DNA of 64,000 nucleotides from Bacteroidota bacterium. Lineage in GTDB: Bacteria > Bacteroidota > Bacteroidia > 2-12-FULL-35-15. The DNA is taken from contig JBAXQU010000001.1 of the NCBI GenBank assembly GCA_037131555.1, positions 1,490 to 65,489 on the forward strand, written 5' to 3'. A program made the translations under genes and the position numbers. Position 1 is the first letter of the stretch. Every line of letters starts with the position of its first letter. This document shows positions 25,443-44,463 of the stretch, one piece after another. Below the pieces are notes generated by a model. The model had not been told where the DNA came from, searched no databases, and was given only the letters and a program-made list of their open reading frames with translations.

Positions 25443-25478
25443 TTTTATTTATAATAAAATACAAATGTAAGTATTTTT

Positions 25479-26270: not shown

Positions 26271-26301
26271 TATATAACTAATAATTAAATCATACGAAAA
26301 A

Positions 26302-26704: not shown

Positions 26705-27081
26705 TGGAAAAATATTTAAAGTACCTTACGCCAGCGTCCGTTACAATGATTTCAATTATCGGAATAGTTGTAATCTTAATTTTAGTATTAGCAATTATAC
26801 TTACTCTCAACCGTGAAAAAGACTGGGCGAAGTTTCTTCTTTGGTTTCCAAAAGAGATTGTGGCCATGTATTCAAATAAAGATAGTTTTTTCAGCAAGAA
26901 GCGATTTGAAAGTAGTATCGGATTTATAGCAGGGGTTGGCATTATTTGCTGTTACGTTTGGATAAACAGGCATACATTAAGCAATTGGGATATGATTATA
27001 GATGCTGGTGTATTATTAGGGATAGCAGGATATACTGTATCGAAAATTCAGGAAGAGAAACAAAATCTACCTCCGCAATAA
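26704..27081 (+). CDS. Holin-like small membrane protein (three TM segments)
   Basis: 125 aa. Its start overlaps the previous stop as TAATG. Confidence 0.4.
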   Translation: MEKYLKYLTPASVTMISIIGIVVILILVLAIILTLNREKDWAKFLLWFPKEIVAMYSNKDSFFSKKRFESSIGFIAGVGIICCYVWINRHTLSNWDMIIDAGVLLGIAGYTVSKIQEEKQNLPPQ

Positions 27082-27785
27082 TGGAAACACCCATTCAAAA
27101 AACAGAAATTGTAATTACCACTAACAAGTGGTTAAAGTGGATAATAATTGCCGTTGTGATTATTGCAGTGCTTTGTATAGGAAGTTATGTAATTTATAAA
27201 CGAGGTCAACAATCGGTAGTTAATTCTCAAATTGAAAAAACTGATAAAAGTCAGGTTGTAAATTGGACAAAAATTGTCCTCAATAAAACAGCAACGAATG
27301 ATTCTTTGTTGAATGAAAATTCTATTTTAAAGGAACACAACAAAACGCTTTTAAAATCATTGTCAGCTTATCAAATGTACCAAAGCATAATTAGAAGTAC
27401 AAACGTTGCCACAATCAAACAAACGAGCGATAGTATTAAGGATAAGAAGATAGATAGTATTCAGGTTGTGGATAAGAATGGGATATTAATTGACTATGCG
27501 AATTATAACAATCTTTCAAATTCATTCGATAGTTGCCAAACCGAAAACAAGATTTTGCAGACTACTATTTATTCAGATTCCTTATTTATTCAATCGTATG
27601 TAAAATTAATTCAGGCAAAAGATTCACTCGAAACTTATACCAATAAACAATGCGCTGATTTGTCAAAAATTGACAAGTCGAAAATTCGCAGGAAGACCTT
27701 TTGGATATTTACAGGATGGGGAGTTGCGATAAGCGAAACTGCTTTGTTTATGTATGAGGCGATTAAGAATGTGGCAGTAAAATAA
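27081..27785 (+). CDS. Membrane-anchored coiled-coil protein (spanin-like topology)
   Basis: Starts at METPIQK, overlapping the previous stop as TAATG. It has an N-terminal TM, a long polar/coiled region and a C-terminal TM. Confidence 0.4.
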   Translation: METPIQKTEIVITTNKWLKWIIIAVVIIAVLCIGSYVIYKRGQQSVVNSQIEKTDKSQVVNWTKIVLNKTATNDSLLNENSILKEHNKTLLKSLSAYQMYQSIIRSTNVATIKQTSDSIKDKKIDSIQVVDKNGILIDYANYNNLSNSFDSCQTENKILQTTIYSDSLFIQSYVKLIQAKDSLETYTNKQCADLSKIDKSKIRRKTFWIFTGWGVAISETALFMYEAIKNVAVK

Positions 27786-27820
27786 ACGCCTTGGTCGGCT
27801 TTGTAAAAACCATATAAAAA

Positions 27821-28051
27821 ATGAAAAACGTAAGAGCAAAATTTGTGGTAAGCCACATTATTAATCATGCTGATGGAAGCATTAATGTTAATGCGCATCC
27901 TGTCCATTCAGGAAGCGAGGAGAATAAATCATTCAATGACTATACTCCATCTGGAAAATTAGAGCTTCATATTTCAAAAGGTAAAGAAGCTCAAAAACTA
28001 TTTGAACCAGGCAAGGAATATTATTTAGATTTCACATTAGTGGAAGCATAA
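27821..28051 (+). CDS. Small conserved phage-type protein of unknown function
   Basis: 76 aa (RAKFVV...ENKSFNDYTPSGKLELHIS...FEPGKEYYLDFT). I recognise this pattern from phage genomes, but it has no named function. Confidence 0.4.
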   Translation: MKNVRAKFVVSHIINHADGSINVNAHPVHSGSEENKSFNDYTPSGKLELHISKGKEAQKLFEPGKEYYLDFTLVEA

Positions 28052-28076
28052 TCAACATCCATAATTTGATAGATTT

Positions 28077-28104
28077 AAAAGTCCTGATTTTATTCAGGAC
28101 TTTT
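28077..28104. terminator. Bidirectional hairpin terminator
   Basis: aaaagtcctga-ttttat-tcaggactttt, located between convergent genes. Confidence 0.65.
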
Positions 28105-29265
28105 TTATTTGGACTTTTTTTGTCCAAAAAGTTTATTCATTGCAATATCCGTTTCCTCTTCGTGAAATGCCTTCATATAAATTTCGGTAGTTGAAATTTT
28201 AGAGTGCCCGAGTAGCTCCTTAATAGAATAAATGTCAATCCCCATTTTGTGAGCATAGTCAGCAAATGAATTCCTTGCCGAATGATAACCAACCTCCGAA
28301 ACCTCCGCACGTTTGCAAGCCCAATGTAAGTTCTTTCTGAAGAATGAATTTCGTACACTAATGCTATAATCTTCCTTTGTCCAGTCCACCTTAGTATCAA
28401 AAAGAAACTCTTTATTTTTCTTCCGGTACCGATCAATAATCTTTAATGCTTGTGGCATCAGCTTAATGTTTCGCTCGTTGTTACTTTTGTGCATTGTATA
28501 TTTCAATCGTCCATCCTGAATCATTGAAAACTTAATCCGACACAAATCTCCAAAGCGAATACCGGCACAGTAAAAGGAAAACAGAAACATATCCACGGCC
28601 ATCTGAGGTGTTGGAAACTTTGAGAAATCGTAAGCCTCCAATTTCTGTATATCTTCAATCGAGTTCCTTTTTTTCTCTGTTCTTTTCGTTGTAAACTTAT
28701 AATTCAGGAACGGATTCTTGTGATGCTCTATCTGGCCAGAATTAATAATAATTTTGAATATGAATTTTATTCTCATCAGGATATCGGTAATGTAATTTAC
28801 ATTCAAACCCTGTTTTGTCAGATGAACTTCGAAGTCCTGAATAAACTTATTATCTATCTTCTTTACAGGAAGGACGGGAGCAAACTCCTTTAGCTTTTTT
28901 TGAACGGAACATAACCGCTTATAATTATATAAAGAATGTTTTTCTTTCGAATAATCAATTCGCTCCTGAAACCACCAATAGAAGTCTTCTTTGCTTCCAA
29001 GCTCTGCAACACCTCCGGTAAGAAAGTTTTTCTCCAATAGGTTACACATATCCATTATCTTAATGTTAACCTCCCGGGCATTCGGAATCTTGCCTAATTT
29101 TACCCTTCGTTCCTTAACGTCCCAATGTTCTTCTTTGACACTTGCACCAACCGAAAAATACTCTACCTTTGTTTTGCCATTCGAAGTGGAAGTAACTCTT
29201 ATTTTAATAGGAAAAGTTTTATCTTTCGTTTTATGATACTTCCAGATAATAGGCTGAATTTTCAT
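28105..29265 (-). CDS. Tyrosine-type site-specific integrase
   Basis: 386 aa with a Bacteroidota-type N-terminal arm-binding domain. The C-terminal catalytic region contains HSARNSFA, LLGHSKISTTEIYMK (H-x-x-R ... H ... Y). Confidence 0.87.
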   Translation of the reverse strand: MKIQPIIWKYHKTKDKTFPIKIRVTSTSNGKTKVEYFSVGASVKEEHWDVKERRVKLGKIPNAREVNIKIMDMCNLLEKNFLTGGVAELGSKEDFYWWFQERIDYSKEKHSLYNYKRLCSVQKKLKEFAPVLPVKKIDNKFIQDFEVHLTKQGLNVNYITDILMRIKFIFKIIINSGQIEHHKNPFLNYKFTTKRTEKKRNSIEDIQKLEAYDFSKFPTPQMAVDMFLFSFYCAGIRFGDLCRIKFSMIQDGRLKYTMHKSNNERNIKLMPQALKIIDRYRKKNKEFLFDTKVDWTKEDYSISVRNSFFRKNLHWACKRAEVSEVGYHSARNSFADYAHKMGIDIYSIKELLGHSKISTTEIYMKAFHEEETDIAMNKLFGQKKSK

Positions 29266-29351
29266 TTAAAAGTTTTTTAAAAGTTTTTGTACAAAAGTGT
29301 ACAAAAGTACAACAATTACTTACATAATGAAATTGAGCTATAAATCAGTAT

Positions 29352-30929
29352 TTACAAGGAAATTATAATAGATATTGATGTTTCAGGAATGTAGCTTTTT
29401 TGTCCGGCTCCGGGTACACTAGCGGAAAAGCTGTCAGAAATGATGGCTTTTCCTTTTTTAATTTCCTCAAAACACTTGTTACTTCTGGTCAATACGTCTA
29501 ACACTTCGTTAACAGATGTGGTTCGACAACCATTATTTCCTAAAAGTACTTTTTCAGTGAATAATGAACCAGCTAATATCCGTTTATCCTCATAACTACC
29601 TTCGTTAAACAAAACATTAAGGTTTGTAAGCATTTCCAGCCCACCGTCAACATATTCCTTTATAGAATCATTCTTATTGTTTAGAATCTCAATATCATTG
29701 CTTACATTCATTAAATCAGAATTAAGTCTTAACGCAATATTATTAAACCTCTCTGGTGCTAATTCTCTTTTTAATAGCATGTTTTCAGCTTCAATAATAC
29801 TACCTTTAATAGATTGTTGCGTTTCTAATTTAATCATAAGTTGCTTTGCCTTATCTCCATTATATTTTACATCTGTATCCTTTAGAACTTCTTTGAATAG
29901 TTCTTTGATGTTGTTATTAATTTGTAAGTTAGTTAATAATCCAGAAATAAAAGCATGTGTCTGGTCAATAGATACCCTTGTTTGACACTTATTGCGACAA
30001 TGGTAGTATCCATATTTTTTACTCCTACCTTTTGACACACTTCCAGTAACTTGTTTTCCACAAATTTCACATGTTAGAAAATCTCGTAGAGGAAAATTTT
30101 CGTTGTCATGGCTTGGTTTTAATCCATACCATCGTTTACCTCTGAAAACATCTTGGACTTTATAAAAGGTTGACAAATCAATTATAGCTTCAAATCTACC
30201 TTCAACAATTGTCATAGGTTCTTTTTCAAACTCTGGTACAATAATTTTACCAGCATAAATAATGTTTTTTAGAATATCACTAAAGGCACTCTTTTGAATG
30301 TTCATTCCCAATTTGTTTAACCTTTTGCGAATTACTTCAACAGGCTCAATCCCTTTAGCCACCTCTTCAAACGAAGTCCTAATGAAATGGGCATATTGAT
30401 TCGGCTTTAATATGGATTTTTTAAACTCGTCTCTACAATTATCATAACCGTATGGAGCTTTCCCACAATAGTAACCGCCTTTTTTTGCTTGGTGAGTTCC
30501 CTTTAACGTTCTATCTGAAATATTATCCCTTTCCATTTCTCCTTGAACAAGATATACAGCAAGCATCATCTTATAATTTGATTGAGTAAAGTCAAGAAGT
30601 TGTTCAACGGCATTCGATTCAATACCCATTTTTCTAAATTCTGACAATACAGGATATGCCTTTTCGGAGCTACGTGAAAACCTGTCCCATTTGGTAAAAA
30701 GCACTTTATTAATTTGATGTTTGTTTGCCTTTACAAATAATTTCAATTGAATCCATTCTGGTCTGTTAAAGTTTTTTGCAGAATGGTCATCTTTATAAAT
30801 TTTAATAATATTATATCCCTCCCGTTTGCAATATGCTTTTAGAGATTCTTCTTGTTGTTGTAAACTATGCCCTTTTTCGGCTTGTTCGTCAGTGCTTACC
30901 CTAAGGTATAAAATTACATTTGATTGCAT
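29352..30929 (-). CDS. Large serine recombinase
   Basis: 525 aa with a resolvase catalytic domain (VILYLRVSTDEQ), a recombinase domain, a zinc ribbon (CEICGK...YYHCRNKC) and a coiled coil. The last 16 codons lie inside element 1. Confidence 0.87.
   Translation of the reverse strand: MQSNVILYLRVSTDEQAEKGHSLQQQEESLKAYCKREGYNIIKIYKDDHSAKNFNRPEWIQLKLFVKANKHQINKVLFTKWDRFSRSSEKAYPVLSEFRKMGIESNAVEQLLDFTQSNYKMMLAVYLVQGEMERDNISDRTLKGTHQAKKGGYYCGKAPYGYDNCRDEFKKSILKPNQYAHFIRTSFEEVAKGIEPVEVIRKRLNKLGMNIQKSAFSDILKNIIYAGKIIVPEFEKEPMTIVEGRFEAIIDLSTFYKVQDVFRGKRWYGLKPSHDNENFPLRDFLTCEICGKQVTGSVSKGRSKKYGYYHCRNKCQTRVSIDQTHAFISGLLTNLQINNNIKELFKEVLKDTDVKYNGDKAKQLMIKLETQQSIKGSIIEAENMLLKRELAPERFNNIALRLNSDLMNVSNDIEILNNKNDSIKEYVDGGLEMLTNLNVLFNEGSYEDKRILAGSLFTEKVLLGNNGCRTTSVNEVLDVLTRSNKCFEEIKKGKAIISDSFSASVPGAGQKSYIPETSISIIISL
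29403..29418 (+). repeat. attR core, 16-bp direct repeat tccggctccgggtaca
   Basis: Identical to 24130..24145. It lies 138 bp beyond the integrase start. Confidence 0.75.
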
Positions 30930-30939
30930 TTTTTTCTTT

Positions 30940-31227
30940 TTAATTAATTCCTATTGTTAACTCATTCAGTAAACTACTGTATCTGTTTCTCCCTTGAAAT
31001 TCTGAGTTAAATTCTTCATAATCTTCAAATGGACAAGAATCATAATGATTCTCAAATACAGAGTATAGAACGAAATATAAATCTTCAAAAAGCATCAATA
31101 CAGGTTCAGAGTATTTGTTATTGGGCAGTTCAATCACGTTGTGTTCAATTAGAGTTCCTTTTAATTTGATAAGCTCTATAAATTCTGGTAGCGATAATGT
31201 CAATCGCATTAATTCTAAATAAGTCAT
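30940..31227 (-). CDS. Hypothetical protein
   Basis: ORF only, with the start taken at MTYLELMRL. Confidence 0.3.
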   Translation of the reverse strand: MTYLELMRLTLSLPEFIELIKLKGTLIEHNVIELPNNKYSEPVLMLFEDLYFVLYSVFENHYDSCPFEDYEEFNSEFQGRNRYSSLLNELTIGIN

Positions 31228-31232
31228 TTTTA

Positions 31233-31451
31233 TTATTTGTTTTTGTTGTTTATTATTTTTTTGTGGCAAATCTCTGCCAATTTGTATAGTACATTTCGGA
31301 TTAACTCTATTTCAGTATCTGTAAATTGTACACCATTTTTGTTTAATTTTTTCTTGCATTCTGTAATTGAAAGCATTGTTATCAATACCCATTTCTCATA
31401 TTTTTTTATTAGGTAGAGAATTATTCTTTTAAGGTCATAGCTAGACCCCAT
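31233..31451 (-). CDS. Hypothetical small protein
   Basis: ORF only. Confidence 0.3.
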   Translation of the reverse strand: MGSSYDLKRIILYLIKKYEKWVLITMLSITECKKKLNKNGVQFTDTEIELIRNVLYKLAEICHKKIINNKNK

Positions 31452-31650
31452 AGTTAATGTATGAACTTTAAAACCAAAAACACACTGATAACCATGACAA
31501 TAGTAGTATAAATTATACTACCAAACTAATATTTTGATTATTTGCTGAACTAATCCTTTAGGTACTCCACAGGATAGAGGTAATAGTCTTACGTAAACTA
31601 TTTTTTGTTATTCAAAGATACGAATTTTTTAAATAGGATGCAAGTATAAT

Positions 31651-31881
31651 TTAACAACCTATTTCTATAAGTAAGTCCGACACTTTAATTTCAAGAGCCT
31701 CACAAATTCTTTTAAGAACTTTCATTGAAATATTTTGCTCTCCACGCAGTATTCTCCTAATAGAACTTTCATTTATGTTGCAAACATTGGCAAACTCAAC
31801 ATTCGATTTGAATTTTACTTTTGCTTTTTTTGCAATCGCATTACCTAATTTAATAAGAAAGTCCTTATCATTTAATAACAT
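31651..31881 (-). CDS. XRE-family helix-turn-helix transcriptional regulator
   Basis: 76 aa with an HTH_3-like region (FANVCNINESSIRRILRGEQNISMKVLKRICEAL). Confidence 0.6.
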   Translation of the reverse strand: MLLNDKDFLIKLGNAIAKKAKVKFKSNVEFANVCNINESSIRRILRGEQNISMKVLKRICEALEIKVSDLLIEIGC

Positions 31882-31882
31882 T

Positions 31883-31894
31883 GGACAAATGTCC
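31883..31894. promoter_or_regulatory. Candidate operator GGACA-AA-TGTCC
   Basis: Palindrome directly upstream of the XRE gene start, in the divergent region shared with the lipoprotein gene. Confidence 0.3.
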
Positions 31895-31937
31895 GCCCAT
31901 ATTAAAAAACAATCTCGTCATATATGGCGAATAATAG

Positions 31938-31945
31938 TACCTTTG
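31938..31945 (+). promoter_or_regulatory. -7 promoter box TACCTTTG
   Basis: Lies 18 nt upstream of the ATG at 31964. Confidence 0.4.
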
Positions 31946-31963
31946 ACCAATAAATAAAAAAAC

Positions 31964-32584
31964 ATGAAAAAAACATATCCATTACTCTACCTTTTTGGGG
32001 CATTATTAGCAAGCATTACATCTTGTAAGAAAGATGATACTGAACCAACTCGTAGTCCTATCGTAGTAACACCGCCTGTAACAAGTACTGGCAGTGATAC
32101 GATGTATTTTAAAGTTACATTACCTGTAATAACCCCATCTAATATTCCATTATACGGTGATTTTAAATATACAATGTCTAATGTTCACGTTTTCATTATC
32201 CGCAAAGATTCGACAATACACGAAGCAATACCAAATCTTAGTATCATTTATGATGCTAACACTAATCTCACATTTATAAGTAATTTTGATAATACCCCCG
32301 TACCTATTTTAATGAAGGTAGGTGATGGATTATACTTAACTGTAGATTCACTGGAAACATCACCAAATTATCCAAATGGTACTAATATTTTCAAGTTCCC
32401 TTGTTTATGTATTAACAAATCAACACATACTGGTTCACTGGCAGGGTTTTTATACCAAATACCAGTGTTTCCTAATGATTTCACTAATCAAATTTACTAT
32501 GGAAATGGTAGTGATTCTTGGGGTATTGCGTATAATATATGTGTTTACCCACATATAAACACAGTTAGCTTTATAAGACCTTAA
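31964..32584 (+). CDS. Hypothetical lipoprotein (island cargo)
   Basis: Signal peptide with lipobox SITSC. No recognisable domain. Confidence 0.5.
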   Translation: MKKTYPLLYLFGALLASITSCKKDDTEPTRSPIVVTPPVTSTGSDTMYFKVTLPVITPSNIPLYGDFKYTMSNVHVFIIRKDSTIHEAIPNLSIIYDANTNLTFISNFDNTPVPILMKVGDGLYLTVDSLETSPNYPNGTNIFKFPCLCINKSTHTGSLAGFLYQIPVFPNDFTNQIYYGNGSDSWGIAYNICVYPHINTVSFIRP

Positions 32585-32743
32585 CGATACAGGATAAAGA
32601 ACCTCGTATTCCTTTAAATCAACAAACTTCGTATTGTACAGTTAAATGTGCCAAGAATAGGGTATGGTAGAAAACATACAAACTTTTTTTGCGTAAATAG
32701 TGATTATTGTGGTGTATAATTTTGCCACCTTAATAATATACAC

Positions 32744-32751
32744 TATCTTTG
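32744..32751 (+). promoter_or_regulatory. -7 promoter box TATCTTTG
   Basis: Lies 25 nt upstream of the resolvase ATG. Confidence 0.45.
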
Positions 32752-32776
32752 TACCATAATTAAAAAAACATAAACA

Positions 32777-33379
32777 ATGTCAAAAGTAAAATACATTCGC
32801 ACCTCAACCATAGAGCAGAATAATGGTCGCCAGCAAACTAATTCAAATGATTTTAAAAAACTTTACATAGATAAATGTAGCGGTTCAATTAAATTAAGTG
32901 AACGCCCACAAGGGAAAAAATTAATTAAAGACATAGAATCTGGTAACATTACTGAGGTGCATATTAATAGTATTGACCGTCTAGGGCGTAATATAATAGA
33001 CATACTAACTCAAATAGAATTTTTCACAGAACGTAAAATTAATTTGTATGTGGAAAATATCGGAATGGTTAGTATGATAGATAACAAACCTAATCCTTCT
33101 TTTAAAATGATAGTGTCCGTATTAGGTAACGTGGCTGAAATGGAGCGTACTAGTATGCTCGAAAGACAAAGACAAGGTATAGAACTAGCTAAAGCAAAAG
33201 GGACTTATACTGGTCGTTTATATGGCACAAAAATGACTGACGAGGAAACGCTACTAAAATATAAGAGAGTAGCAAAGGCATTAAAAAAAGGGGGTTCCTT
33301 GCGCCTTGCATGTGCGATGGGTGAATGTAGTTTAGGCACTGCTCAAAAAGTGCAAAGGTTATTACGTCAAGTGGCATAA
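32777..33379 (+). CDS. Small serine recombinase (resolvase/invertase family)
   Basis: 200 aa with YIRTSTIEQ (catalytic Ser), SIDRLGRN, VAEMER and a C-terminal HTH. Confidence 0.85.
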   Translation: MSKVKYIRTSTIEQNNGRQQTNSNDFKKLYIDKCSGSIKLSERPQGKKLIKDIESGNITEVHINSIDRLGRNIIDILTQIEFFTERKINLYVENIGMVSMIDNKPNPSFKMIVSVLGNVAEMERTSMLERQRQGIELAKAKGTYTGRLYGTKMTDEETLLKYKRVAKALKKGGSLRLACAMGECSLGTAQKVQRLLRQVA

Positions 33380-33418
33380 ATAATTAAAGGTCATGCCTAG
33401 CATGACCTTTAATTATTT
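33378..33418 (+). terminator. Long hairpin after the resolvase gene
   Basis: Perfect 19-bp arms (aaataattaaaggtcatgc / gcatgacctttaattattt) with a 3-nt loop. Confidence 0.55.
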
Positions 33419-33795
33419 CCCAAAAAACAAAACGCTTCTTTTACACAACCATTGTTTTCGAGGTTTTCAATGGCAAAAACACTATTTTTAAATTAAAACC
33501 ACCTCATTTTGTTTGCTAGAGTAGGTACAAATGGGAACGGTATTTTCTCTTAAAAACTCGAAAAAATATTTTTCGAGGCACATCATACCGCCACTAAAAC
33601 AAAAAATAATTTCGGATATGATAAGGTGGGTAACGCATTCCCGACAAGGTCGGGGGGGCTTATCCTAGTTGCTCTATCCGTTTTCTTATTGTTTGTATTT
33701 CCAATTCTAATTGCAGTTTTCTTAACTGCTTTTGCAGTTCTTGTCGATTTAGTGGCTCACGTTCAACATTAATTTCTAACTGCTTTACTCTAACT

Positions 33796-34005
33796 TTATC
33801 CTCTAGTGTTGTCATGGTTCATCCAGTTAATTAAATACTCTTCATCAAATAGGTCATTAAGCCTATTCTCTCTTTTTAGTAATAAGTATTCCATGTATAA
33901 ATGGTCTTCATCTGTTATCGCTTCCTCTTCATACATTCTCAAAATGTAGTTAGTTAATAGACCCTTTAGTATAGGGTTAAATTCAAAATTTGTAATTTCA
34001 ATCAT
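33796..34005 (-). CDS. Hypothetical small protein
   Basis: ORF only. Confidence 0.3.
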   Translation of the reverse strand: MIEITNFEFNPILKGLLTNYILRMYEEEAITDEDHLYMEYLLLKRENRLNDLFDEEYLINWMNHDNTRG

Positions 34006-34011
34006 CTTCTT

Positions 34012-34518
34012 TTAGTTTATAATGTTCTTTATGTTATTGTTTTCTTTCTGCATATAATTTTTCCATCCTTCAAGGTCATATATATCAGTTTCTTTATAGC
34101 TTATTCGAGAGAATCCTAATCTAAGGCTTTCAATAAGTTTTCTCTTTTGGTTGCAGTTAATGTAACAATGTAAATGGTTTTGGTGGTTAGCTTTCTTTTG
34201 TTCCACCACATAATAAATCTCTAAGTCGGTGTCATTCATATTATCATAAACAAATTTCATTACAGCATCAATATCAGCCTCACTATAATAATTACAGGGG
34301 TCTATGCTTAGTGCATAGTACTTGCTTTTTATTTTGTTCTTAGGGGTGAATTTAGGTAGTAAAAGGTGGTGTACCAACCATCTATTCACCTCATCTTTTT
34401 TAAGTAACTCAGCTGAGGTGGTCGGTTGAATGGACTTAATAATTTTCCTAATATTTCTAATACCAGTCTTATGGTACTTACTTAGTTCTTGTACTGTTAA
34501 GTACTCTTTTTCTATCAT
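34012..34518 (-). CDS. Putative HTH plus HUH-type Rep/relaxase-like protein
   Basis: 168 aa with an N-terminal HTH-like segment (LTVQELSKYHKTGIRNIRKII). It has an HLH (His-hydrophobic-His) triplet in NHLHCYINC and a downstream NYMQK (Y-x-x-K). The motif-level match is weak. Confidence 0.3.
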   Translation of the reverse strand: MIEKEYLTVQELSKYHKTGIRNIRKIIKSIQPTTSAELLKKDEVNRWLVHHLLLPKFTPKNKIKSKYYALSIDPCNYYSEADIDAVMKFVYDNMNDTDLEIYYVVEQKKANHQNHLHCYINCNQKRKLIESLRLGFSRISYKETDIYDLEGWKNYMQKENNNIKNIIN

Positions 34519-34777
34519 ATTCTTTTTCTTTTTATGTATAACAAATCTATTAGCAAGGTAAAAAAGTACCTCACTTTAGTTTGCTTATTTATATATAAGT
34601 ATCTGGGATTTTCCGAAAAGTTCCTTCGGCACGAAAATAATCTATGTAATGGCAACCAATAAAACAAGATGCCTAATAACAAGCGGTTTTGCTCTTGGTT
34701 ATCAGTTTATAAGCATTGGAAAGTTTCTTTAGGTCTTCGATAAAATGGTTCGACAACTCGATGTTAAAGGGTACTAA

Positions 34778-34822
34778 GCCGAACTTTTCGAAGAAATTCT
34801 GAGAAGTTCGGCTTTTATTTTT
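34778..34822 (+). terminator. Strong orphan intrinsic terminator
   Basis: 12-bp stem (gccgaacttttc / gagaagttcggc, one G-U pair), an 11-nt loop and then ttttattttt. There is no plus-strand ORF of 60 aa or more upstream. Confidence 0.5.
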
Positions 34823-34840: not shown

Positions 34841-34930
34841 GGCATTAGCGAATAGCGAAGGGTCGGGACAGGCGAGGCTCGCAAATCCTGAATAACAAAT
34901 CCTAAATCTAAAAATTCTATCCCGAAGTTT
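34841..34930 (+). repeat. Dispersed intergenic repeat family, copy A
   Basis: Shares ggcaTtagcgaa, gaggctcgca, aaatcctaaatc and cgaagttt blocks with 56584..56768. Confidence 0.55.
34856..34889. repeat. Left arm of a 34-bp perfect inverted repeat
   Basis: cgaagggtcgggacaggcgaggctcgcaaatcct. Its exact reverse complement is at 35446..35479. Confidence 0.85.
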
Positions 34931-35014
34931 CAAGGACTTAGTACTAAATCCTAATTACCAAGTTCTAAAAAGAAGATTTGGCGTTTTGTGATGAAGTTCT
35001 TTGTTTTGTTCTAA

Positions 35015-35439
35015 CAAATTGAAATATATGCACTTTCGGAAGCAAAATGTTATTCAAAAAAAGTGACATATACCATTCCGGATTACGAAATGTGCGCGTG
35101 ACTTGTTACCGAAAACATTCCGAAAACAAAACCATATCCGTAACATGTTACCGAACCTATTCTGAAAACAGAACCCTGTGCGTAACATGTTACGCGGCAC
35201 ATTCCGAAAACGAAACCATATCCGTAACTTGTTACCGAACCTATTCTGAAAACAAAACCATGTGCGTAACATGTTACGCGGCACATTCCGAAATCAGAAC
35301 CCTGTGCGTAACATGTTACACGACACATTCTGTTTCTGGAACCCTATCCGTCACTTTTTCACCTAAAAACTCTCTTTTTTCGATTCTCAAACTCATTTTA
35401 GATGAATATTTGAAAGGATATGTAGGATTTAGGATTTGA
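35015..35439 (+). repeat. 425-bp repeat element, copy 1 (conserved flanks plus internal 42-bp array)
   Basis: Colinear without indels with 46385..46809 (offset exactly 11,370 bp). The 5' flank from aaaatgttattcaaaaaaagtgacatataccattccggattacgaaat is near-identical. It also forms track ORF 35047..35439. Confidence 0.85.
35098..35361 (+). repeat. Tandem array of six 42-bp units plus a degenerate seventh, core palindrome GTAAC-(A/T)T-GTTAC
   Basis: Palindromes start at 35098, 35140, 35182, 35224, 35266 and 35308. Two unit subtypes alternate. Some units extend to the 16-bp perfect palindrome GCGTAACATGTTACGC. Confidence 0.9.
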
Positions 35440-35514
35440 AGATTTAGGATTTGCGAGCCTCGCCTGTCCCGACCCTTCGGGAGCGATTTTCAACTCTGCG
35501 TTCTCTGCGATAAA
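35422..35514 (-). repeat. Dispersed intergenic repeat family, inverted partial copy
   Basis: Its reverse complement (tatttatcgcagagaacgcagagttgaaaatcgct...gaggctcgcaaatcct) aligns with tatttatagctgagaacacagagttaaaaaccgctgaggctcgcagag at about 56.65 kb. Confidence 0.55.
35446..35479. repeat. Right arm of the 34-bp perfect inverted repeat
   Basis: aggatttgcgagcctcgcctgtcccgacccttcg, the reverse complement of 34856..34889. Confidence 0.85.
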
Positions 35515-35578
35515 TATGAAACGGAAAATCCTAAATCCCCAATTCCTAAATCCATATTGCCAACCAAGTAAAATGCCC

Positions 35579-37149: not shown

Positions 37150-38076
37150 CTACCTTGTATACTTCCGTTCTTGATGGCAAGCTGGAGCGCATGAACCACC
37201 TGTTTCGGTTTGCTGAAAATTCATTCTGAATTCCCAACTTCCAAATCCTACTTTATCTCTTATCAAAGACGGGTTATTGGTTGCGTGCGGATTGTGACAT
37301 ACCATACAACTTCTGCCTTTCTCACCATGTATATGCACAAAGTGTAAATTCTTATCTCCATTTCTGAAACTAGTAGTAGTAGTTTTTTCCTTTTGAACAA
37401 GGTCCATTTCGTGGCATTCCCAACACAATGCAAACGAATCGACATTTACTGGCAAATAATTATTTACAGGGAATGCAAGGTCTAACAAACGTGGATCTTG
37501 AGATGCATGAGGATTGTGACATGTTTTTGAACAATTCTTAAATGGAGGGTGTATTGTTTTTGCTGTCCTCGCTAGCTTATCCATATCGGGTAAAGTTTTC
37601 TTTGGACTCACCACAATAGCTTTATTATGACAACTCAAACATAGGTCTTTTCTTTTTGCTATCACTAGTCCTTTTTCATCTGTCGAATGTGGCGAATGAC
37701 AATTGGTGCACGATTTTTTATCATTTATTACTTTGTGTACAAAAGGTGCGGTGGCGTATAATTTTTTGCTCGTTTCATGACAAGAAAAACATAGGTCGGG
37801 CATTGCTTGTATTAAGTTTATCGCTGTTTTCGGGTGGTCCTGACTTCCGGGAGCGTGGCAATCGGCACAACCTTTATCAGTTTTAGTAATATGTTTAATT
37901 TGTTTTTCTACCAAAGCACCATGACAATCGGTGCATTTCTTGGTAGAAGTTGAATCTGTTTTATGAGGAATAGAATCGTTCGATATGAATTCAAATCCAT
38001 AAGCGGTGTTAACGTTAACAACCATCATCGCCAACAACAGTGCGACAGAGATGATATAGAAGAGTGAGTGTTTCAT
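37150..38076 (-). CDS. Multihaem c-type cytochrome (7 CXXCH plus 2 CX3CH motifs)
   Basis: 308 aa with an N-terminal signal/anchor. Motifs are CTDCH, CADCH, CFSCH, CTNCH, CLSCH, CSKTCH, CWECH, CMVCH and CAPACH. Its start is 2 nt after the stop of the barrel gene. Confidence 0.8.
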   Translation of the reverse strand: MKHSLFYIISVALLLAMMVVNVNTAYGFEFISNDSIPHKTDSTSTKKCTDCHGALVEKQIKHITKTDKGCADCHAPGSQDHPKTAINLIQAMPDLCFSCHETSKKLYATAPFVHKVINDKKSCTNCHSPHSTDEKGLVIAKRKDLCLSCHNKAIVVSPKKTLPDMDKLARTAKTIHPPFKNCSKTCHNPHASQDPRLLDLAFPVNNYLPVNVDSFALCWECHEMDLVQKEKTTTTSFRNGDKNLHFVHIHGEKGRSCMVCHNPHATNNPSLIRDKVGFGSWEFRMNFQQTETGGSCAPACHQERKYTR

Positions 38077-38078
38077 GT

Positions 38079-40070
38079 TTAAAAGTTTCGTGTTACTTGA
38101 ATATAAATTCCTTTGAAAACTGTTTTCGTATTATTATTTTGATTAAAATAAAAGTTAGTTCCACCCGATATAAATAGTTTGCGGAATGATGTTGTCAATT
38201 CTAATTTTGCTGTATGATAATCAAGACTATTCCCTTTCATATTCATTCTTCTGTACATATAATCCAAATCAACTCTCAGATTACGGAACATTGAATAGGC
38301 TAATTTAGTATTCAAAATATAATCCTGTCTTCTTGCATTTTCATCCGTCATTTGATAGTCTATCAAATCTCCATTTATTGTAAAGGTAATTTTACTTAAC
38401 GATTTCTGGAAAGCCAAATAATATTTCATGCCTTGATAAGGAACTATTGTGCTCTTGTAATATTCATACTCTATTCCTCCTCTCATCAGTTTATATTCCA
38501 CTCTTACACCCAACACATGGCGAGTATAATAGTTAAACACTTTACTTTCGGCCACGCTAAGGTCGTTATAATTCTGACTAATAAATCGGTAATAAAAGTT
38601 TAAGATATTATTAAACAAAGCAACATTTCCTGAAAAAGAATGAACATCCAAATTAAATTTATTCGTTCCGCCTTGTGCGGCAGTATAATCTATGTATACA
38701 CTGGAGTTGTTCGGAATATTGCCACCTGGTATTCTTCTAATTTCTATATACGTTCCTTGTACATACAATTCATAATCACCTGAAGTTCCATTCCAACGTT
38801 GATAAATGAAGTTTCCTGTCACATCTTTTACAACAATAGTGTTAATATTCACGTTTGGTCGTTTCAACAAGATGACTTCATTGTCAACCAAAAAATATTG
38901 TTCTCTTACCACTATTACATCAGGACTTGTGGTTGTTATTTTCTGATACTCTTTTGCATAACTATAATTGATGTTTAATGTTCCTCTATGAATCTTTTTA
39001 GTGTAAACCAAATCAATTCCAAAACGATTTCGATGATCCTTATATGCGTCTTTTTGATTGTTTTCTGTGTAGTCATAAAACAATCTGGTTCTTAAACTCT
39101 CGAACAACTGATGAGTTAATGCTGTTTGCACCCATTGTGTATTTACCTTGTATTGATCACCATCTATTTGAGCCCAATTATAAATTCCTGTGAACACAAA
39201 GCGCCTTGGTAACACTATGTTTAAACGCTCATTATCCTGTAGCCTTTTAAATCGATAGGTACCTCTTTCGTCCGAACTAGTTAAATTAGAAGTAAGCGTA
39301 TATCTTTTTTGCTTGTCAACAGAAATATCATTTGTTAGGTCAAAATTATCAAGCGTTGTCAAATAAGTGAATGGTTGATAACCTCCAGAAGACACGCTAT
39401 CGGTTTGAGAACTCTTATTTTCTGTGTGATAATACAGCAAAGTGGTGTGGTCATGTTCAGTGAATGACCTGTTTGCACTCGCATTAAATATCTGTTGGTT
39501 AAGTCTGAAAATTCTATCCGAACCAATTGTTTGCTGTTCCAATTTATTGTTGTTGTATCCTGCTGACATTGGCAGGATCTTATTATTATAATTAGCGGTT
39601 ACCCCGTAATTCCTTGTTTTCGAACGAATCCGTGTAATATTCTCAATATTCTGCAACGTATTATTTAAATTAACAGTTGTATTAAAGTTAAATGCTTTTT
39701 TCTTTAGAAATTGGGCAGAAAAGTCTAATCCACCGCTATTGGATTTTTCGGTATAATCTGGAATTCCAATATAATTATCTCTTCTCGACTGTGGGTTATA
39801 ATCCGCATTTAACCTTACTTCACAGAAATTAGGATGTAAGAAAAAACTTTTTGTTCTTACTTGAAATAATCCATTGAAAAATGCATCGGTTTGACGAACG
39901 CTGTAATCTCCTATTGAATATTCAGACTCCCTGTAATTTCCCCTAAGTAACACTTTCCCAGAAAGGCTAGTAAGTTGCCAGAATTTAAATGCTGTCGCCT
40001 CATTTTGAGCAACAGCAATCATTCTTAACAGAACAAAACTCAACAATAATATGTATTTTCTAAATTTCAA
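38079..40070 (-). CDS. Predicted outer-membrane beta-barrel protein (porin-like partner of the cytochromes)
   Basis: 663 aa with signal peptide ...MIAVAQNE. Rich in alternating aromatic/polar residues (Y, N, T) and has a C-terminal ...VTRNF. It sits between the two 9-haem genes. Confidence 0.6.
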   Translation of the reverse strand: MKFRKYILLLSFVLLRMIAVAQNEATAFKFWQLTSLSGKVLLRGNYRESEYSIGDYSVRQTDAFFNGLFQVRTKSFFLHPNFCEVRLNADYNPQSRRDNYIGIPDYTEKSNSGGLDFSAQFLKKKAFNFNTTVNLNNTLQNIENITRIRSKTRNYGVTANYNNKILPMSAGYNNNKLEQQTIGSDRIFRLNQQIFNASANRSFTEHDHTTLLYYHTENKSSQTDSVSSGGYQPFTYLTTLDNFDLTNDISVDKQKRYTLTSNLTSSDERGTYRFKRLQDNERLNIVLPRRFVFTGIYNWAQIDGDQYKVNTQWVQTALTHQLFESLRTRLFYDYTENNQKDAYKDHRNRFGIDLVYTKKIHRGTLNINYSYAKEYQKITTTSPDVIVVREQYFLVDNEVILLKRPNVNINTIVVKDVTGNFIYQRWNGTSGDYELYVQGTYIEIRRIPGGNIPNNSSVYIDYTAAQGGTNKFNLDVHSFSGNVALFNNILNFYYRFISQNYNDLSVAESKVFNYYTRHVLGVRVEYKLMRGGIEYEYYKSTIVPYQGMKYYLAFQKSLSKITFTINGDLIDYQMTDENARRQDYILNTKLAYSMFRNLRVDLDYMYRRMNMKGNSLDYHTAKLELTTSFRKLFISGGTNFYFNQNNNTKTVFKGIYIQVTRNF

Positions 40071-40095
40071 TTTTACTTAATAAATAGTTTGAACA

Positions 40096-42216
40096 TTACT
40101 TAGTTTTCGAATTAGTTTTTTGTTTGTCAATAGCATTTGTATTTGACTCCGTTTTGGTAGCATTTAAATCGTCTAACCCCTCCAAAATATTGATTGGCCT
40201 AATGAAAGGAGAAATAAATGGTTTCGCTTTATAAATCTCCTCTTCATATATGCTTCTCGGTGCGTATGCCACTCTACCTCTCAATTCGTCTGGATTATAA
40301 ATATATGGTTTGATAAACTGAACTGAAGAGCCTGAATTTGTGCCATTCGAAATTTTCTTACTTGAGTTTGTTTCCTTGACAGAAATACCATTTGGTGTAT
40401 TGATATTCGAATTAGCCACAACATTACTATTGCTATTTTTACTTGTACTACCAATTTGATTATTATTGGAAGTTTTGTTTTTATCTTTAGCATTGGTTTC
40501 TGAATTTGAGTTCGAACCTTGCTTTGTGTTATTCGTTATAACCTTACCATTCGTGGTGTTTTTGTTGGCAGCACCATCTTGTTTAGTAATCGAGGTTTTG
40601 TTCTTATCCCCTGCACTGGTTCCAGTTGTTGAACTAGTAACTTGTTTGGCGTTGTTCGTTACAACCATTCCACTCGTTGTATTTTTGTTTGTATTACTTC
40701 CTTGATTTCTTGCTGAAGTTTTGTTCTTATCACTAGCATTAGTTTCCGAATTTGAACCTTGTTTTATGTTATTCGTTGCAACATTCCCACTTGGATTGGT
40801 TTTGCCAACTGTTCCTCCTTTGTTACTAACAGCATTCTTATTCTTATCATTTATGTTAACCGAAGTTCCTCCTGTTGTCTGTTTAGGATTTTTAGTTGCC
40901 GAAATATTGCTTGCCGAATTTTTGACACCATTACTTTGAGTTGAACCTGAATTTTTCACTTTGTCTGCATTTCCATTATTCTTGCTTCCATTTTGAAGTA
41001 TCGGATTGCCCCATTTACTATCTTTTGCTGAATTATTCAACGAAGCGATTTTATCCTTTTGTGCAGTTATGAATGCTCCATTACCTTTCTTATTACCAGT
41101 TGTATTGCTAACAGAATTAATTTTATTCACGTTATTCGGATTGGTAACATTTTTAGCAATATTTCCTCCAGCCAATTTTGTAGCATTTGTCAATTTACTA
41201 TCCTTTGAAATATTTTTAGTTGATTTAACATTTCTTAAAGAATCAACTCCTTTTTTAGAATTTACGTTTCCTATGCCATTGCCATCAATTGAACCATTTA
41301 CACCTTTAATCAAGGATAATGAATCAGGCCCAGTCTTAGAAAGTATGTTGAGCAGTGTTTTCGTTTTGTATGGTCGTATCGACTCCACTAAAATATCTTT
41401 ATCTTCACCTCCATGAGGGTTATGACATTCGGTACAATTCTTTGTTTTTGCTTTTTTATGTGTAGGAGTTTTAAATACCTGATCAGGATTATGACAGAAC
41501 AAGCATATCTGTTGTGATTCTCGAAGTAACAGTTTTTTAGATTTAACACTATGTGAAGCATGACAACCTCCACAATTTTCAGATACTACAGGGCCATGAA
41601 CAAAATTATAGCGCGAATTAAAATTCTCATGACAATTATAACATGATCCTTTTCTTAAAATTCCTGAATTATCTCCTCCATGAGGGTTATGGCAATCTGT
41701 ACAATTTCTTGTTCCAATTTTTGCATGAATACTATTTTTCAATACTTGCTTTTCTTCATGGCAATACAAACAAATTTGCTGCCCTTCCCTCATCAGTAAT
41801 TTTTCAAATTTTGCTTCATGCTGATTGTGACAAGCAATACAATTACCAGAAATAACAGGCCCATGCAATACTTGATATTTGTCTCCAAAATCGCCATGAC
41901 AAGAATAGCAGAGCTCTGGCATTGGTTTAATTAAACTGTTAGAAAAATCACCCGCATGACAGCTTTTACATTTTTCTTCCGCGTACGGCTTGTGTAAATA
42001 CGACTCTGGCTTGGTAACCACTTGCGTTAATGAGCCAAGTGTATCTTTCTTTTCAGTTTCATTAACATCTGTGTGTTTGCCTGGGTCAGGAACACCATCG
42101 AAAAAAAATGAAAGTACTCGATATTGTTTTTCTGGAGTGCAGCGTACCATAAACATTGCAAGCACTGCAATGATTAGGTAAAAACTCAGAAGTGTTTTTT
42201 TATTGGCACTCTTCAT
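40096..42216 (-). CDS. Nine-haem c-type cytochrome with a long Asn/Ser/Thr/Lys-rich tail
   Basis: 706 aa with an N-terminal signal and Cys26 (possible lipoprotein). It has nine CXXCH motifs between aa 83 and 265. A low-complexity region of about 340 aa follows, then a distinct C-terminal segment of about 75 aa. Confidence 0.8.
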   Translation of the reverse strand: MKSANKKTLLSFYLIIAVLAMFMVRCTPEKQYRVLSFFFDGVPDPGKHTDVNETEKKDTLGSLTQVVTKPESYLHKPYAEEKCKSCHAGDFSNSLIKPMPELCYSCHGDFGDKYQVLHGPVISGNCIACHNQHEAKFEKLLMREGQQICLYCHEEKQVLKNSIHAKIGTRNCTDCHNPHGGDNSGILRKGSCYNCHENFNSRYNFVHGPVVSENCGGCHASHSVKSKKLLLRESQQICLFCHNPDQVFKTPTHKKAKTKNCTECHNPHGGEDKDILVESIRPYKTKTLLNILSKTGPDSLSLIKGVNGSIDGNGIGNVNSKKGVDSLRNVKSTKNISKDSKLTNATKLAGGNIAKNVTNPNNVNKINSVSNTTGNKKGNGAFITAQKDKIASLNNSAKDSKWGNPILQNGSKNNGNADKVKNSGSTQSNGVKNSASNISATKNPKQTTGGTSVNINDKNKNAVSNKGGTVGKTNPSGNVATNNIKQGSNSETNASDKNKTSARNQGSNTNKNTTSGMVVTNNAKQVTSSTTGTSAGDKNKTSITKQDGAANKNTTNGKVITNNTKQGSNSNSETNAKDKNKTSNNNQIGSTSKNSNSNVVANSNINTPNGISVKETNSSKKISNGTNSGSSVQFIKPYIYNPDELRGRVAYAPRSIYEEEIYKAKPFISPFIRPINILEGLDDLNATKTESNTNAIDKQKTNSKTK
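40405..40878 (-). repeat. Four tandem repeats of about 120 bp (about 40 aa) within the cytochrome tail
   Basis: Peptide units ...DKNKTS...NKNTT.G.V.TNN.KQ recur four times (aa about 447-604). Confidence 0.7.
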
Positions 42217-42271
42217 ATAAAAGGTTAGCTGACAATTATAATTGAAATCATACTTTAGCTATTTGTTTGGA

Positions 42272-42279
42272 CAAAATTA
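42272..42279 (-). promoter_or_regulatory. Possible internal -7 box TAATTTTG (minus strand)
   Basis: Plus-strand caaaatta, 55 nt upstream of the ATG at 42216, within the 294-bp gap after the NHL gene. Confidence 0.3.
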
Positions 42280-42510
42280 GACGTATGGATTCAAAAAAAA
42301 TATGATTTACAGCACGTTTTTTAAATAAATTTTTCTTGCTTAATTAATTGTTAAAAATTAAAATAACTTAATGTGGTAAATTTCAAGACCGCTTATACTT
42401 TTAAAATGTGATTTGAAAAAGCGGTGCAATTCCAAACTATTCTTGAGGGATTTTGAAAAACAAATCCTATTCTCTTGAATTAAAATATAACTATTAGACC
42501 TAAGAAGATA

Positions 42511-43665
42511 CTATTTACTTGGAGAAACACCTTTTGGGTCGACTCTACCATAAACATTGATTAAGTCAGGTCCATACTGACTGGTGACAAATATTAGATA
42601 TTTCAAGTCATACGATGGGTCAACATATTTTTCGAAATACTTTTTATTATCGTAATCAATCATCACTTTCGCAGGAATAATCAAATCTCCTGGTCCTTGA
42701 TAATGACCTCCAATAACCAATAGCAACTTACCGTCTTTATTAAATATTTGAACGTGGTCGAAACCAGCATCTACTGCGTAAATATTTGATTCATGATCGA
42801 CCGCAATTCCTTTTAATTTAGAAAATTGCCCTGGACGATCACCGCGAGAACCAATGGTGTCGATAAATTTTCCATCAATCGTATATCGTTTAATCATCGA
42901 ATAACCGAAATCGGCAGCGTAAACTCTATCTCCCTCTACAGCAATATTTGCTGGGATTCCAAGAAAGGCCTTATCCGTTGGTTCAACATCTGGAAAAGAA
43001 TACAACAATTTGTTGGTTGAATCTGCACTATATACATTGATTTTACTAATAGCAGTATTCGCAACAAAAATCTTATCTTGATAGGTCACTACATCCGTTG
43101 GCTTGAACTTTTCTTTTTCCCCAAAACATTTTACATAATTTCCGTTATCATCAAACACCACTATTTCTTGACGGCCAACATCAGCCACGTATAAATACCC
43201 TTTGTCATCTACTGAACAATTTATAGGGGCTCTCAACATTCCTTTTCCTCCGGGACGAAAAAAATGAAAATCTCGAGTTTCTAAATCAATTATTTCCATT
43301 CCTCCACCATATTGGTCGCAAACATAAAGTTTACCTTTGTGAATTGAAATTCCATAAGGCTTCACCATGGCTTTTGCTTTTTCTTGTCCAAGAATTAATT
43401 TGGATAAAAAAGATTGTTTCTTTCCAAGGTCGGCAGAACTAGTAATTTTGGTTAAAAATTGTATTCGAGCTTGCTCTGGAGGAGTAGGATAAATTACAAG
43501 AGGCTTAGTATTGTCTTTTGTGTTAGCCACCTTGTTGGCATTGCACCCTGCAAAAACAAACATTGTAATAAAAGCGAAAATCCAAAAACTGTAATTAACG
43601 GAGTTTGTTGCACGAAAAAGAATTAAATTGTTTTTCATATTTTTCGAGAACAGATGATTATTCAT
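42511..43665 (-). CDS. NHL-repeat / six-bladed beta-propeller lipoprotein
   Basis: 384 aa with lipobox VFAGC. Repeated blades follow the pattern ...P.GIA.D..G.IYVAD.....I..F. An alternative start is at 43638. Confidence 0.65.
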   Translation of the reverse strand: MNNHLFSKNMKNNLILFRATNSVNYSFWIFAFITMFVFAGCNANKVANTKDNTKPLVIYPTPPEQARIQFLTKITSSADLGKKQSFLSKLILGQEKAKAMVKPYGISIHKGKLYVCDQYGGGMEIIDLETRDFHFFRPGGKGMLRAPINCSVDDKGYLYVADVGRQEIVVFDDNGNYVKCFGEKEKFKPTDVVTYQDKIFVANTAISKINVYSADSTNKLLYSFPDVEPTDKAFLGIPANIAVEGDRVYAADFGYSMIKRYTIDGKFIDTIGSRGDRPGQFSKLKGIAVDHESNIYAVDAGFDHVQIFNKDGKLLLVIGGHYQGPGDLIIPAKVMIDYDNKKYFEKYVDPSYDLKYLIFVTSQYGPDLINVYGRVDPKGVSPSK

Positions 43666-43683
43666 AATAGATTTTTTAGAGTT

Positions 43684-43715
43684 AAAAAAAAGGGCGAAAA
43701 TTTTATATTTCGCCC
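43684..43715 (-). terminator. Hairpin with T-run after the tetrahaem gene (terminator or attenuator)
   Basis: On the minus strand, gggcgaaa-tataaaat-tttcgccc is followed by tttttttt. Confidence 0.5.
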
Positions 43716-43746
43716 TCCAAAAGTATCAAATTTTTGTTGTTCTGTA

Positions 43747-44463
43747 TTATTTTTTGTGGCAAGCCAAGCAAAGTGCAGAACCTCTGTTATCCATACTTAA
43801 TTGATAACCTCTGCTATTGCTGTGTGCACCATGGCAAGAAGTACATTGTACTTTTCCTGCACCATCCAATTTTGTTGAAACCGCTCTTCCTGAAGTAATG
43901 TAACCTGATCCTGCTGCAGAGTTGAAGTTGTTGTAGATATAAGTAGGTGTATGAAGACCTCCTCCAACTGCTGAGTCATAAGGAATAGAAATTGGGTGGT
44001 CGTTACGTAAATCTGTTGACAACAAAGCTCCACCTGTTAATGGTGTACCTAAGTTTTGTCCACCGTAAGCTCCTAAAGCAATAGAACCATCATGGCAAGA
44101 TAAACATAATTTAGAAGTTCCATCCGGTGCAGTTACGCCATAACCAGTGTAAACTCCTGAAACTAAAGTACCAAAATCAAAACCAGTGTACATTTGATAT
44201 GCAGCAGTAGTAAATTGGTGATTCCACAATGGAGCGTCTGTTACAGTCAAATCTGCATTGTGTGGTGTGTGACAAGGTTGGCAAATTTGACCTCCTTGCA
44301 TTGTGGTAGCATTGTATGTGTTCCATACTTGTGTTGAAAAGTTGTGAGGTAAACCCGCAACAGTTAAAGATGATCCAGTTACCCCAGGACCAAGGGTACT
44401 TTGTGCGATGCTCATTAAAGGTATCATTAACCCTAATGCAGCTGAAATGATTAATTTTTTCAT
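43747..44463 (-). CDS. Tetrahaem c-type cytochrome, secreted
   Basis: Starts at MKKLIISAALGLMIPLMSIAQ (signal peptide). It has four CXXCH motifs (CQPCH, CLSCH, CTSCH, CLACH) and a PLWNH motif after the first haem site. Confidence 0.75.
   Translation of the reverse strand: MKKLIISAALGLMIPLMSIAQSTLGPGVTGSSLTVAGLPHNFSTQVWNTYNATTMQGGQICQPCHTPHNADLTVTDAPLWNHQFTTAAYQMYTGFDFGTLVSGVYTGYGVTAPDGTSKLCLSCHDGSIALGAYGGQNLGTPLTGGALLSTDLRNDHPISIPYDSAVGGGLHTPTYIYNNFNSAAGSGYITSGRAVSTKLDGAGKVQCTSCHGAHSNSRGYQLSMDNRGSALCLACHKK

Follow-up and report, generated by a model that had tools for sequence, protein, structure and literature searches.

Genomic setting of the arrays

We identified two copies of a tandem-repeat element in the window, by which we mean the whole stretch of 64,000 nucleotides that was analysed. 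Copy 1 lies at the right edge of a mobile-looking block (29352-34800), the second of two in this region. Among its genes are those for a large serine recombinase (29352-30929) and a small resolvase (32777-33379), besides several small ORFs that match no family, and its GC content is 32% versus 36% for the window. The other candidate begins at a tRNA-Leu(CAA) gene (24065-24145), of which the last 16 nt of the 3′ end (TCCGGCTCCGGGTACA) recur at 29403-29418, adjoining a tyrosine integrase gene (28105-29265). The interval 24065-29418, which also contains an S24-peptidase repressor-like gene, looks like an integrated island of ~5.3 kb.

Copy 1 is flanked by a 38-nt inverted repeat (34856-34893 and 35442-35479), which belongs to a different, high-copy REP-like repeat and not to the array. 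This repeat has the core GGGACAGGCGAGGCTCGC with runs of AAATCCT/TAGGATT heptamers. The heptamers are found at 35423-35452, 35526-35553 and 56704-56743, and related motifs occur at 56560-56700 (another intergenic region). The right arm of the 38-nt repeat, together with the sequence just past it (35424-35511), reaches ~10x the flank depth in X1, a lake-water metagenome that resembles the source. What looked like an inversion joint joining the two arms of the 38-nt repeat was an artefact and vanished when a wider reference was used.

Multihaem c-type cytochromes with paired CXXCH motifs and MtrC/MtrF-like domains are encoded at 37150-44544, along with NHL/beta-propeller proteins. Relatives at 59% identity (L006-L009) have kept the cluster, and the genome also encodes components of the T9SS; the gene content suggests a capacity for extracellular electron transfer. 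The T9SS genes, together with Gld genes, assign the organism to Bacteroidota. Within one of the multihaem cytochrome genes (ORF 40096-42216) there is a 123-bp tandem repeat (40469-40757), with a repeat number of 2.3 in the window and of 4.2 in a 91-96%-identical strain (L004 1056-1566), so the length of this cytochrome varies between strains. Copy 2 of the element abuts the stop codon of a GT39-like gene (44805-46415) and sits between convergent genes.

Structure of the two copies

Tandem Repeats Finder called the array of copy 1 at 35096-35330 with a 42-bp period, 5.6 copies and a score of 268, and also called periods of 84 and 126 bp. Matches to GTNACNNGTNAC begin at 35098, 35140, 35182, 35224, 35266 and 35308. 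This confirms the 425-bp element with six palindromes at exact 42-bp spacing (35098-35319) that a preliminary description of this DNA had reported. In the first unit the dyad is imperfect (GTGAC-TT-GTTAC). The perfect 16-bp palindrome GCGTAACATGTTACGC is present at 35180-35195 and 35264-35279, and the degenerate seventh unit was seen as GTCACTTTTTCACC at 35350. Each of the six 42-nt units (35098-35349, + strand) consists of a stem-loop followed by the conserved linker CATTCYGAAAACARAACC. The dyad pattern GTNAC-N2-GTNAC occurs 12 times in the window, compared with 0.43 expected from shuffles.

The preliminary description overlooked a paralogue, copy 2 (46385-46810, + strand), which has the same leader and trailer and aligns to copy 1 without gaps. 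The conserved leader that had been proposed is borne out by this second copy, as 35035-35091 is 100% identical to 46405-46461. In addition to this 57-nt stretch, ~36 nt of the trailer are identical. Copy 2 also has six units (46468-46719, + strand), with five matches to GTNACNNGTNAC spanning 46468-46689. Its dyads are all GTCAC-TT-GTGAC, and those of the copy 1 type are GTAAC-WT-GTTAC.

Occurrence and variation among strains

A metagenome scan returned three loci. One of these, L001, is a 95%-identical orthologue of the copy-2 locus, and the arrays of the other two (L002 and L003) lie on unrelated contigs in other contexts. Further alleles of the copy-2 locus (L013, L014 and L016, each from a different assembly) were obtained by looking up a small neighbouring protein. 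We found more copies with different flanks on Logan contigs from the lake-water metagenomes X1 and X3-X5. These contigs match copy 1 from 34912 or 34970 onward, with differing outer flanks, and an upstream part of the element (34912-35018, + strand) is common to other lake-metagenome copies and absent from copy 2. Copies occur in at least five genomic contexts, with no neighbouring gene in common. In lake metagenomes the unit k-mers reach 20-40x the flank depth and are not assignable to one genome.

Neither a leader 20-mer nor a degenerate unit pattern had any match (0 each) in 185,579 reference genomes, and the element had 0 matches in a viral contig collection. Searches of Rfam 15 gave nothing at the gathering score, with only chance-level matches at E<=10. 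The source contig, a 132-kb ENA contig from a lake metagenome, contains the two copies in the 64 kb of the window and none in a further 11.6 kb, and a covariance model of the unit detected no solitary units in 149 kb. In relatives at 59% protein identity there is no array at the copy-2 site.

The number of units is six in copy 1, copy 2, L001, L002 and L003, and five in L013 and L014, which represent the same locus. The internal module is thus tandem and strain-variable in number (6 versus 5), as in BOX-like repeats and MITEs. Besides having one unit fewer, L013 has ~10 differing sites. The 42-bp phase is exact, without a single indel in the 29 units of five arrays. L001 hardly departs from copy 2 in the array and leader core, even though identity over the surrounding 2.5 kb is only 95.2%.

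Coding potential

As previously noted, the array is open in three frames, with a plus-strand ORF at 35047-35439 (130 aa) and two minus-strand ORFs (81 and 76 aa). The plus-strand ORF, which was annotated by the gene caller in the source contig, had been proposed as a possible gene for a peptide of six 14-aa repeats, in the manner of a RiPP-like multi-core precursor. Its VTCY frame is uninterrupted in copy 1, copy 2, L001, L002 and L003. However, in L013, L014 and L016 the same frame contains two TAA stops within units (CATTCGTAAAAC), the leader, which is present in the L013 and L014 alleles, adds an in-frame TGA, and none of the six frames stays open across the array in the full-length alleles, L013 and L014. 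In L001 the ATG is replaced by ATA, and in L003 the leader is 1 nt shorter, which shifts the proposed N-terminus into another frame. An open reading frame is not conserved across homologous copies.

The supposedly synonymous variation of Val and Thr codons, which had been taken as a sign of coding, actually falls on position 3 of the stem and on the loop. Stem position 3 coincides with the variable Val codon position and its partner is the first base of a Tyr/Asp codon, and the Tyr-to-Asp change is the exact stem partner of the "synonymous" Val change. No protein homologues of the plus-frame or minus-frame ORFs were found among 5.8 billion predicted proteins, Pfam gave no match for the array ORF, and no maturation genes for a RiPP-like peptide were found. 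The in-frame stops, the loss of the ATG and the lack of homologues refute the multi-core peptide, to which we attach next to no probability, and the comparison shows that the hypothetical-protein annotation of the 130-aa ORF is wrong. We conclude that the element is a non-coding, multi-copy intergenic repeat, so far known solely from uncultured lake Bacteroidota.

Covariation of the stems

We distinguish four stem types, (GC)GTAAC/GTTAC(GC), GTCAC/GTGAC, (C)AAACCAC/GTGGTTT(G) and (T)AAAACAC/GTGTTTT(G), the last two from the ends of metagenome contigs with the same leader and trailer. Across these types the two arms vary jointly, and the apex AC-WT-GT and the A/C-rich linker CATT(C/A)CGAAAACAAAACC are constant. 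Among 22 distinct units, 83.5% of the cells of the 8-bp stem are paired, compared with 70% in column shuffles (0 of 500 reached the observed value), and two-sided changes are found in five of the eight stem pairs. Sliding the 3′ arm as a control gave 14-47% pairing. The sequences on either side of the dyad match each other (TAT with ATG, TGT with ACG) in eight of nine internal units of copy 2 and L013. Across the linker the match fails, as all four combinations are present in copy 2. The module is a short stem-loop of 5-8 bp, followed by the conserved A/C-rich linker. Conservation is higher in the linker than in the stems, and this suggests that the function is sequence-specific.

Pairing outside the repeat units also varies in a coordinated manner. 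The leader hairpin CATTCCG-GATTA-CGAAATG (35074-35092, + strand) shows a compensatory change, in which the partners G at 35080 and C at 35086 are replaced by T and A (G-C to U-A) in the L013/L014 allele and in the X4 contigs. The L013 hairpin is CAUUCCU-GAUUA-AGAAAUG, as compared with CAUUCCG-GAUUA-CGAAAUG. The trailer hairpin TTCTG-TTTC-TGGAA (35328-35341, + strand), which takes the place of the last unit's A-rich linker, reads TTCTG-TTTC-CAGAA in these positions in L002 and L003, which on the + strand converts two wobble pairs into Watson-Crick pairs. Compared with shuffled sequences, the predicted folds are much more stable on either strand (copy 1, z-scores of -7.6/-7.4; copy 2, -7.2/-4.9).

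The paired changes in the arms, together with the compensatory change in the leader hairpin, point to selection for base-pairing and not to an operator that binds a dimer. Of the functions offered in the preliminary description, a structured nucleic acid is thus supported by the stem covariation among the 22 distinct units, and that it acts as RNA is only probable. Compensatory changes in quasi-palindromes can also come from template switching, without selection. The strand on which the structure forms is signalled inconsistently. Among G.U-type pairs, 15 stem cells favour the + strand and 8 favour the - strand. The leader hairpin favours the - strand, where a C.A mismatch of the + strand becomes U.G, and the trailer hairpin favours the + strand. 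Unit by unit, the minus strand folds more stably, but is GU-rich. Such mixed signals, in the 15 versus 8 cells and in the disagreement of the two hairpins, are what is expected from a palindrome at the DNA level. An outer stem of G.U pairs on the minus strand was considered and dropped, as it is broken in units of the copy-2 type.

These data also bear on the suggestion that the palindromes form an array on double-stranded DNA for the cooperative binding of a dimeric protein, like the repeats of sopC centromeres or iterons. The 42-bp spacing corresponds to four helical turns, at which every dyad would point to the same side of the DNA. The exact 42-bp phase of 29 units in five arrays without an indel, the invariant AC-WT-GT centre and the almost constant number of units would suit such an array. 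Its half-sites, however, change jointly into four sequences, and a dimer that binds DNA would have to acquire another specificity with every stem type. The leader and trailer hairpins covary too and are not repeat dyads. Several arrays are present per chromosome, one of which abuts a stop codon between convergent genes, and no DNA-binding, partition or replication gene is linked to the arrays in four contexts. Centromeres of the sopC type and iterons consist of ~43-bp tandem direct repeats with an inverted repeat, are located beside parAB or rep, and have one fixed half-site. The element shares with them the tandem direct repeats of similar length with an inverted repeat in each, but its half-sites covary between arrays and no adjacent parAB or rep gene was found in the four contexts. 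The four covarying stems, the lack of a linked DNA-binding gene and the covariation of hairpins outside the repeats disfavour a binding array for a dimeric protein, which we consider unlikely.

Termini and putative signals

The ends of the element are predicted to pair. The 5′ arm of this closing helix (AAAAAAAGTGAC, 35056-35067, + strand) pairs with 35350-35359 in the minimum free energy folds of both strands, and the 3′ arm (GTCACTTTTT, 35350-35359, + strand) is the sequence that had been read as a degenerate seventh unit. Matching sequences are found in copy 2 at 46426-46437 and 46720-46729 (+ strand). The helix AAAAAGTGAC/GTCACTTTTT is 10 bp long, invariant, and intact in five of five aligned arrays. 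As RNA it is AAAAAGUGAC/GUCACUUUUU, with an A-run on the 5′ side and a U-run on the 3′ side, and, because an A-run precedes and a T-run follows the helix, it reads alike on both strands. The five arrays therefore have terminal modules with complementary pairing ends, in the manner of BOX elements and MITEs. Pairing beyond the terminal 10 bp extends further in copies 1 and 2. A long leader-trailer helix predicted for these two copies is not kept in L002 and L003, so we limit the closing helix to the terminal 10 bp.

A promoter-like pair, TTGAAA-N18-CAAAAT (35019-35048, + strand), which is a consensus match only, ends 7 nt before the A-run at the start of the closing helix. The layout is the same in copy 2. 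By eye, the hexamers can also be recognized in L001, L013 and L003 (TTGATA-N18-CAAAAT), and they are weak in L002. Bacteroidota normally use -33/-7 promoters and not -35/-10 promoters; a Bacteroidetes -33/-7 promoter was not found by eye upstream of the leader. The conserved trailer (35360-35440, + strand), which is kept in copy 2 and L003, contains AATATTTG at 35405-35412. This outward-facing sequence is similar to TAnnTTTG, the -7 box of Bacteroidetes, and the trailer of L003 has a perfect TATATTTG. From this motif we infer that the trailer may serve as an outward promoter.

The layout of the element is reminiscent of type III antitoxin (ToxI) loci, which comprise a promoter, 2-5.5 tandem repeats of 34-45 nt and a terminator-like helix, and act as RNA (PMC3401426). 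In ToxI itself there are 5.5 repeats of 36 nt, and the units are described as pseudoknots (PMC3401426). By analogy, the arrays could specify a precursor transcript, from which a dedicated endoribonuclease would release the 42-nt units; the array would then be an orphan or a decoy. In having 5-6 tandem units of 42 nt that are preceded by promoter-like hexamers and followed by a helix and U-run, the element fits the description of these loci (PMC3401426), although the hexamers and the helix with its U-run are consensus matches only. The units here differ in being simple hairpins with a linker, and in none of the contexts is there a toxin gene downstream. Specifically, we identified no ToxN, CptN or TenpN-like gene after any array. 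The genes downstream encode a 10-bladed beta-propeller or T9SS cargo proteins, or are convergent. PADLOC and Pfam gave no endoribonuclease toxin gene directly downstream, where toxIN, cptIN or tenpIN loci would have one, and PADLOC returned nothing else of relevance. We regard a ToxI-like precursor as very unlikely. The arrays are also distinct from CRISPR, as the whole 42-nt unit is repeated and there are no spacers, and no cas domains were found.

An unrelated array at the copy-2 site

In three strains that are 94% identical (L004, L005 and L015), an unrelated tandem array occupies the exact site of copy 2 (L004 7227-7650; L005 4695-5120; partial in L015). It consists of 5.8 copies of a 42-nt unit, ACGATTTAAGTACTAAATGGAACGAATTAAGACATGACACGA, with a 21-nt sub-period. 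The array is bounded by the same ...AAATCAAATT before and the same ATTAG... after, and the immediate flanks are essentially identical. It is closed by a 12-bp inverted repeat, AGACGATTTATG/CATAAATCGTCT, followed by a T-run, and has little predicted structure besides this helix. The covariance model of the unit of the copy 1 and copy 2 family does not detect it. The array is annotated as a 145-aa ORF (DLSTKWNELRHDTN x 6), which was covered by Pfam and PADLOC. A swap of arrays with the same period and copy number at one site is not explained by any known repeat family.

Relationship to interspersed repeats

Given the number of copies and their distribution, the element could be selfish DNA, with palindromes that act as single-stranded DNA hairpins or cruciforms and an RNA structure that is merely a by-product. 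A transposase or HUH enzyme supplied in trans might mobilize it, in a REP/RAYT-like or MITE-like manner, or its palindromes might simply be maintained by quasi-palindrome correction. The family is multi-copy and interspersed with variable flanks, the number of units varies, and a different cassette can occupy the same site, all of which speaks for selfish DNA. The ends are similar to terminal inverted repeats, with 10 of 10 positions matching and ~24 of 35 when extended in copies 1 and 2. Non-Watson-Crick pairs are of the G.T type on both strands (15 versus 8), and copy 1 is at the edge of mobile elements. An IS110-family transposase gene (L002 13550-14503) lies 1.3 kb from the L002 array. A 31-bp tandem repeat of 2.9 copies (L002 13407-13497) is located beside this IS110 gene.

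Against selfish DNA, no RAYT or IS200-like transposase, and no transposase near either copy, was identified among the window ORFs scanned. We found no empty site, and the junctions have just a trivial ATT in common, with no clear target-site duplication. Solitary units are lacking in the 149 kb searched. The linker is conserved above the stems, and the array and leader core are nearly fixed between strains that differ by 4.8% over the surrounding 2.5 kb. We consider selfish DNA a plausible but lesser possibility.

The REP sequences of proteobacteria, and the BIMEs that they form, are arranged in alternating orientation, with a GTAG or CGTC tag recognized by the RAYT transposase (PMC2817692, PMC3733652). 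The element resembles them in its short, imperfect palindromes, which form intergenic arrays with regular spacing, in many cases at 3′ ends where genes converge. In both, the stems evolve through paired changes, and the roles proposed include termination, mRNA stability and protein binding. The units described here, however, are direct repeats with symmetric dyads and do not alternate in orientation. CGTC occurs only in stems of the copy-2 type, and no Y1/RAYT domain was found in the ORFs scanned, so the combination of tag and RAYT is not seen. A further difference is the terminal helix, which closes the whole array, with a dedicated leader and trailer.

The closest analogue appears to be the pneumococcal BOX element (boxA-(boxB)n-boxC), in which pairing terminal modules enclose a variable number (0-8) of 45-nt boxB modules (PMC3049150). 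The boxB modules fold on their own, and BOX elements are presumed to act through RNA structure on co-transcribed genes (PMC3049150). Both have pairing terminal modules around variable tandem modules of ~45 nt that fold by themselves, and both are intergenic and multi-copy with a strain-variable number of modules. The likeness described here is one of layout, between members of different phyla. The element described here differs in its nearly fixed number of units (5-6, not 0-8), in its perfect phasing and in the near-perfect dyad of each unit, whose sequence differs between arrays. Few copies have been found so far, and no candidate mobilizing IS element. We propose that the element is a new family of the modular interspersed-repeat kind and is probably a structured RNA.

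Proposed function and significance

The explanation that we favour, with modest confidence, is a modular interspersed repeat of the BOX/REP kind that acts as a nucleic-acid structure, most likely as RNA. The leader, the 5-6 tandem 42-nt modules and the trailer together form an interspersed non-coding element, in which the sequence of the stems is free to drift provided that both arms change jointly. The RNA may be transcribed on its own from the conserved TTGAxA-N18-xAAAAT (+ strand) or within the UTR of a neighbouring gene. It would be ~300 nt long with paired ends, and would resemble beads on a string, with 5-6 identical hairpins and as many identical, single-stranded, A-rich linkers. By analogy with BOX and REP/BIME elements, such an RNA may function as a multivalent binding platform or sponge, as a stabilizer of transcript ends, or as a bidirectional terminator module. 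The family may spread, or be swapped, as a cassette.

It is also conceivable, though we think it improbable, that the arrays are genes for a new class of bacterial non-coding RNA, in which the geometry (42 nt x ~6, with paired ends) and not the sequence is selected. Selection on geometry would explain why an unrelated array of 42 nt x 5.8, also closed by a helix, is found at the identical site. If true, this would imply a partner that measures the array, for example a hexameric RNA-binding assembly or a processing enzyme, and cassettes of differing specificity that are exchanged among strains.

Small interspersed repeats of the BOX, REP/BIME and Correia kinds are known to alter transcription and the stability of mRNA, and most descriptions come from a handful of pathogens and model proteobacteria. 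The arrays studied here are labelled by gene callers as hypothetical proteins (130 aa, and 145 aa on L004 and L005), an error that is shown for the 130-aa ORF. They represent a cleanly defined family of small repeats from uncultured freshwater Bacteroidota, without a match in Rfam or in the 185,579 genomes. The architecture of the family is unusually regular, and its natural variation supplies internal evidence for base-pairing.
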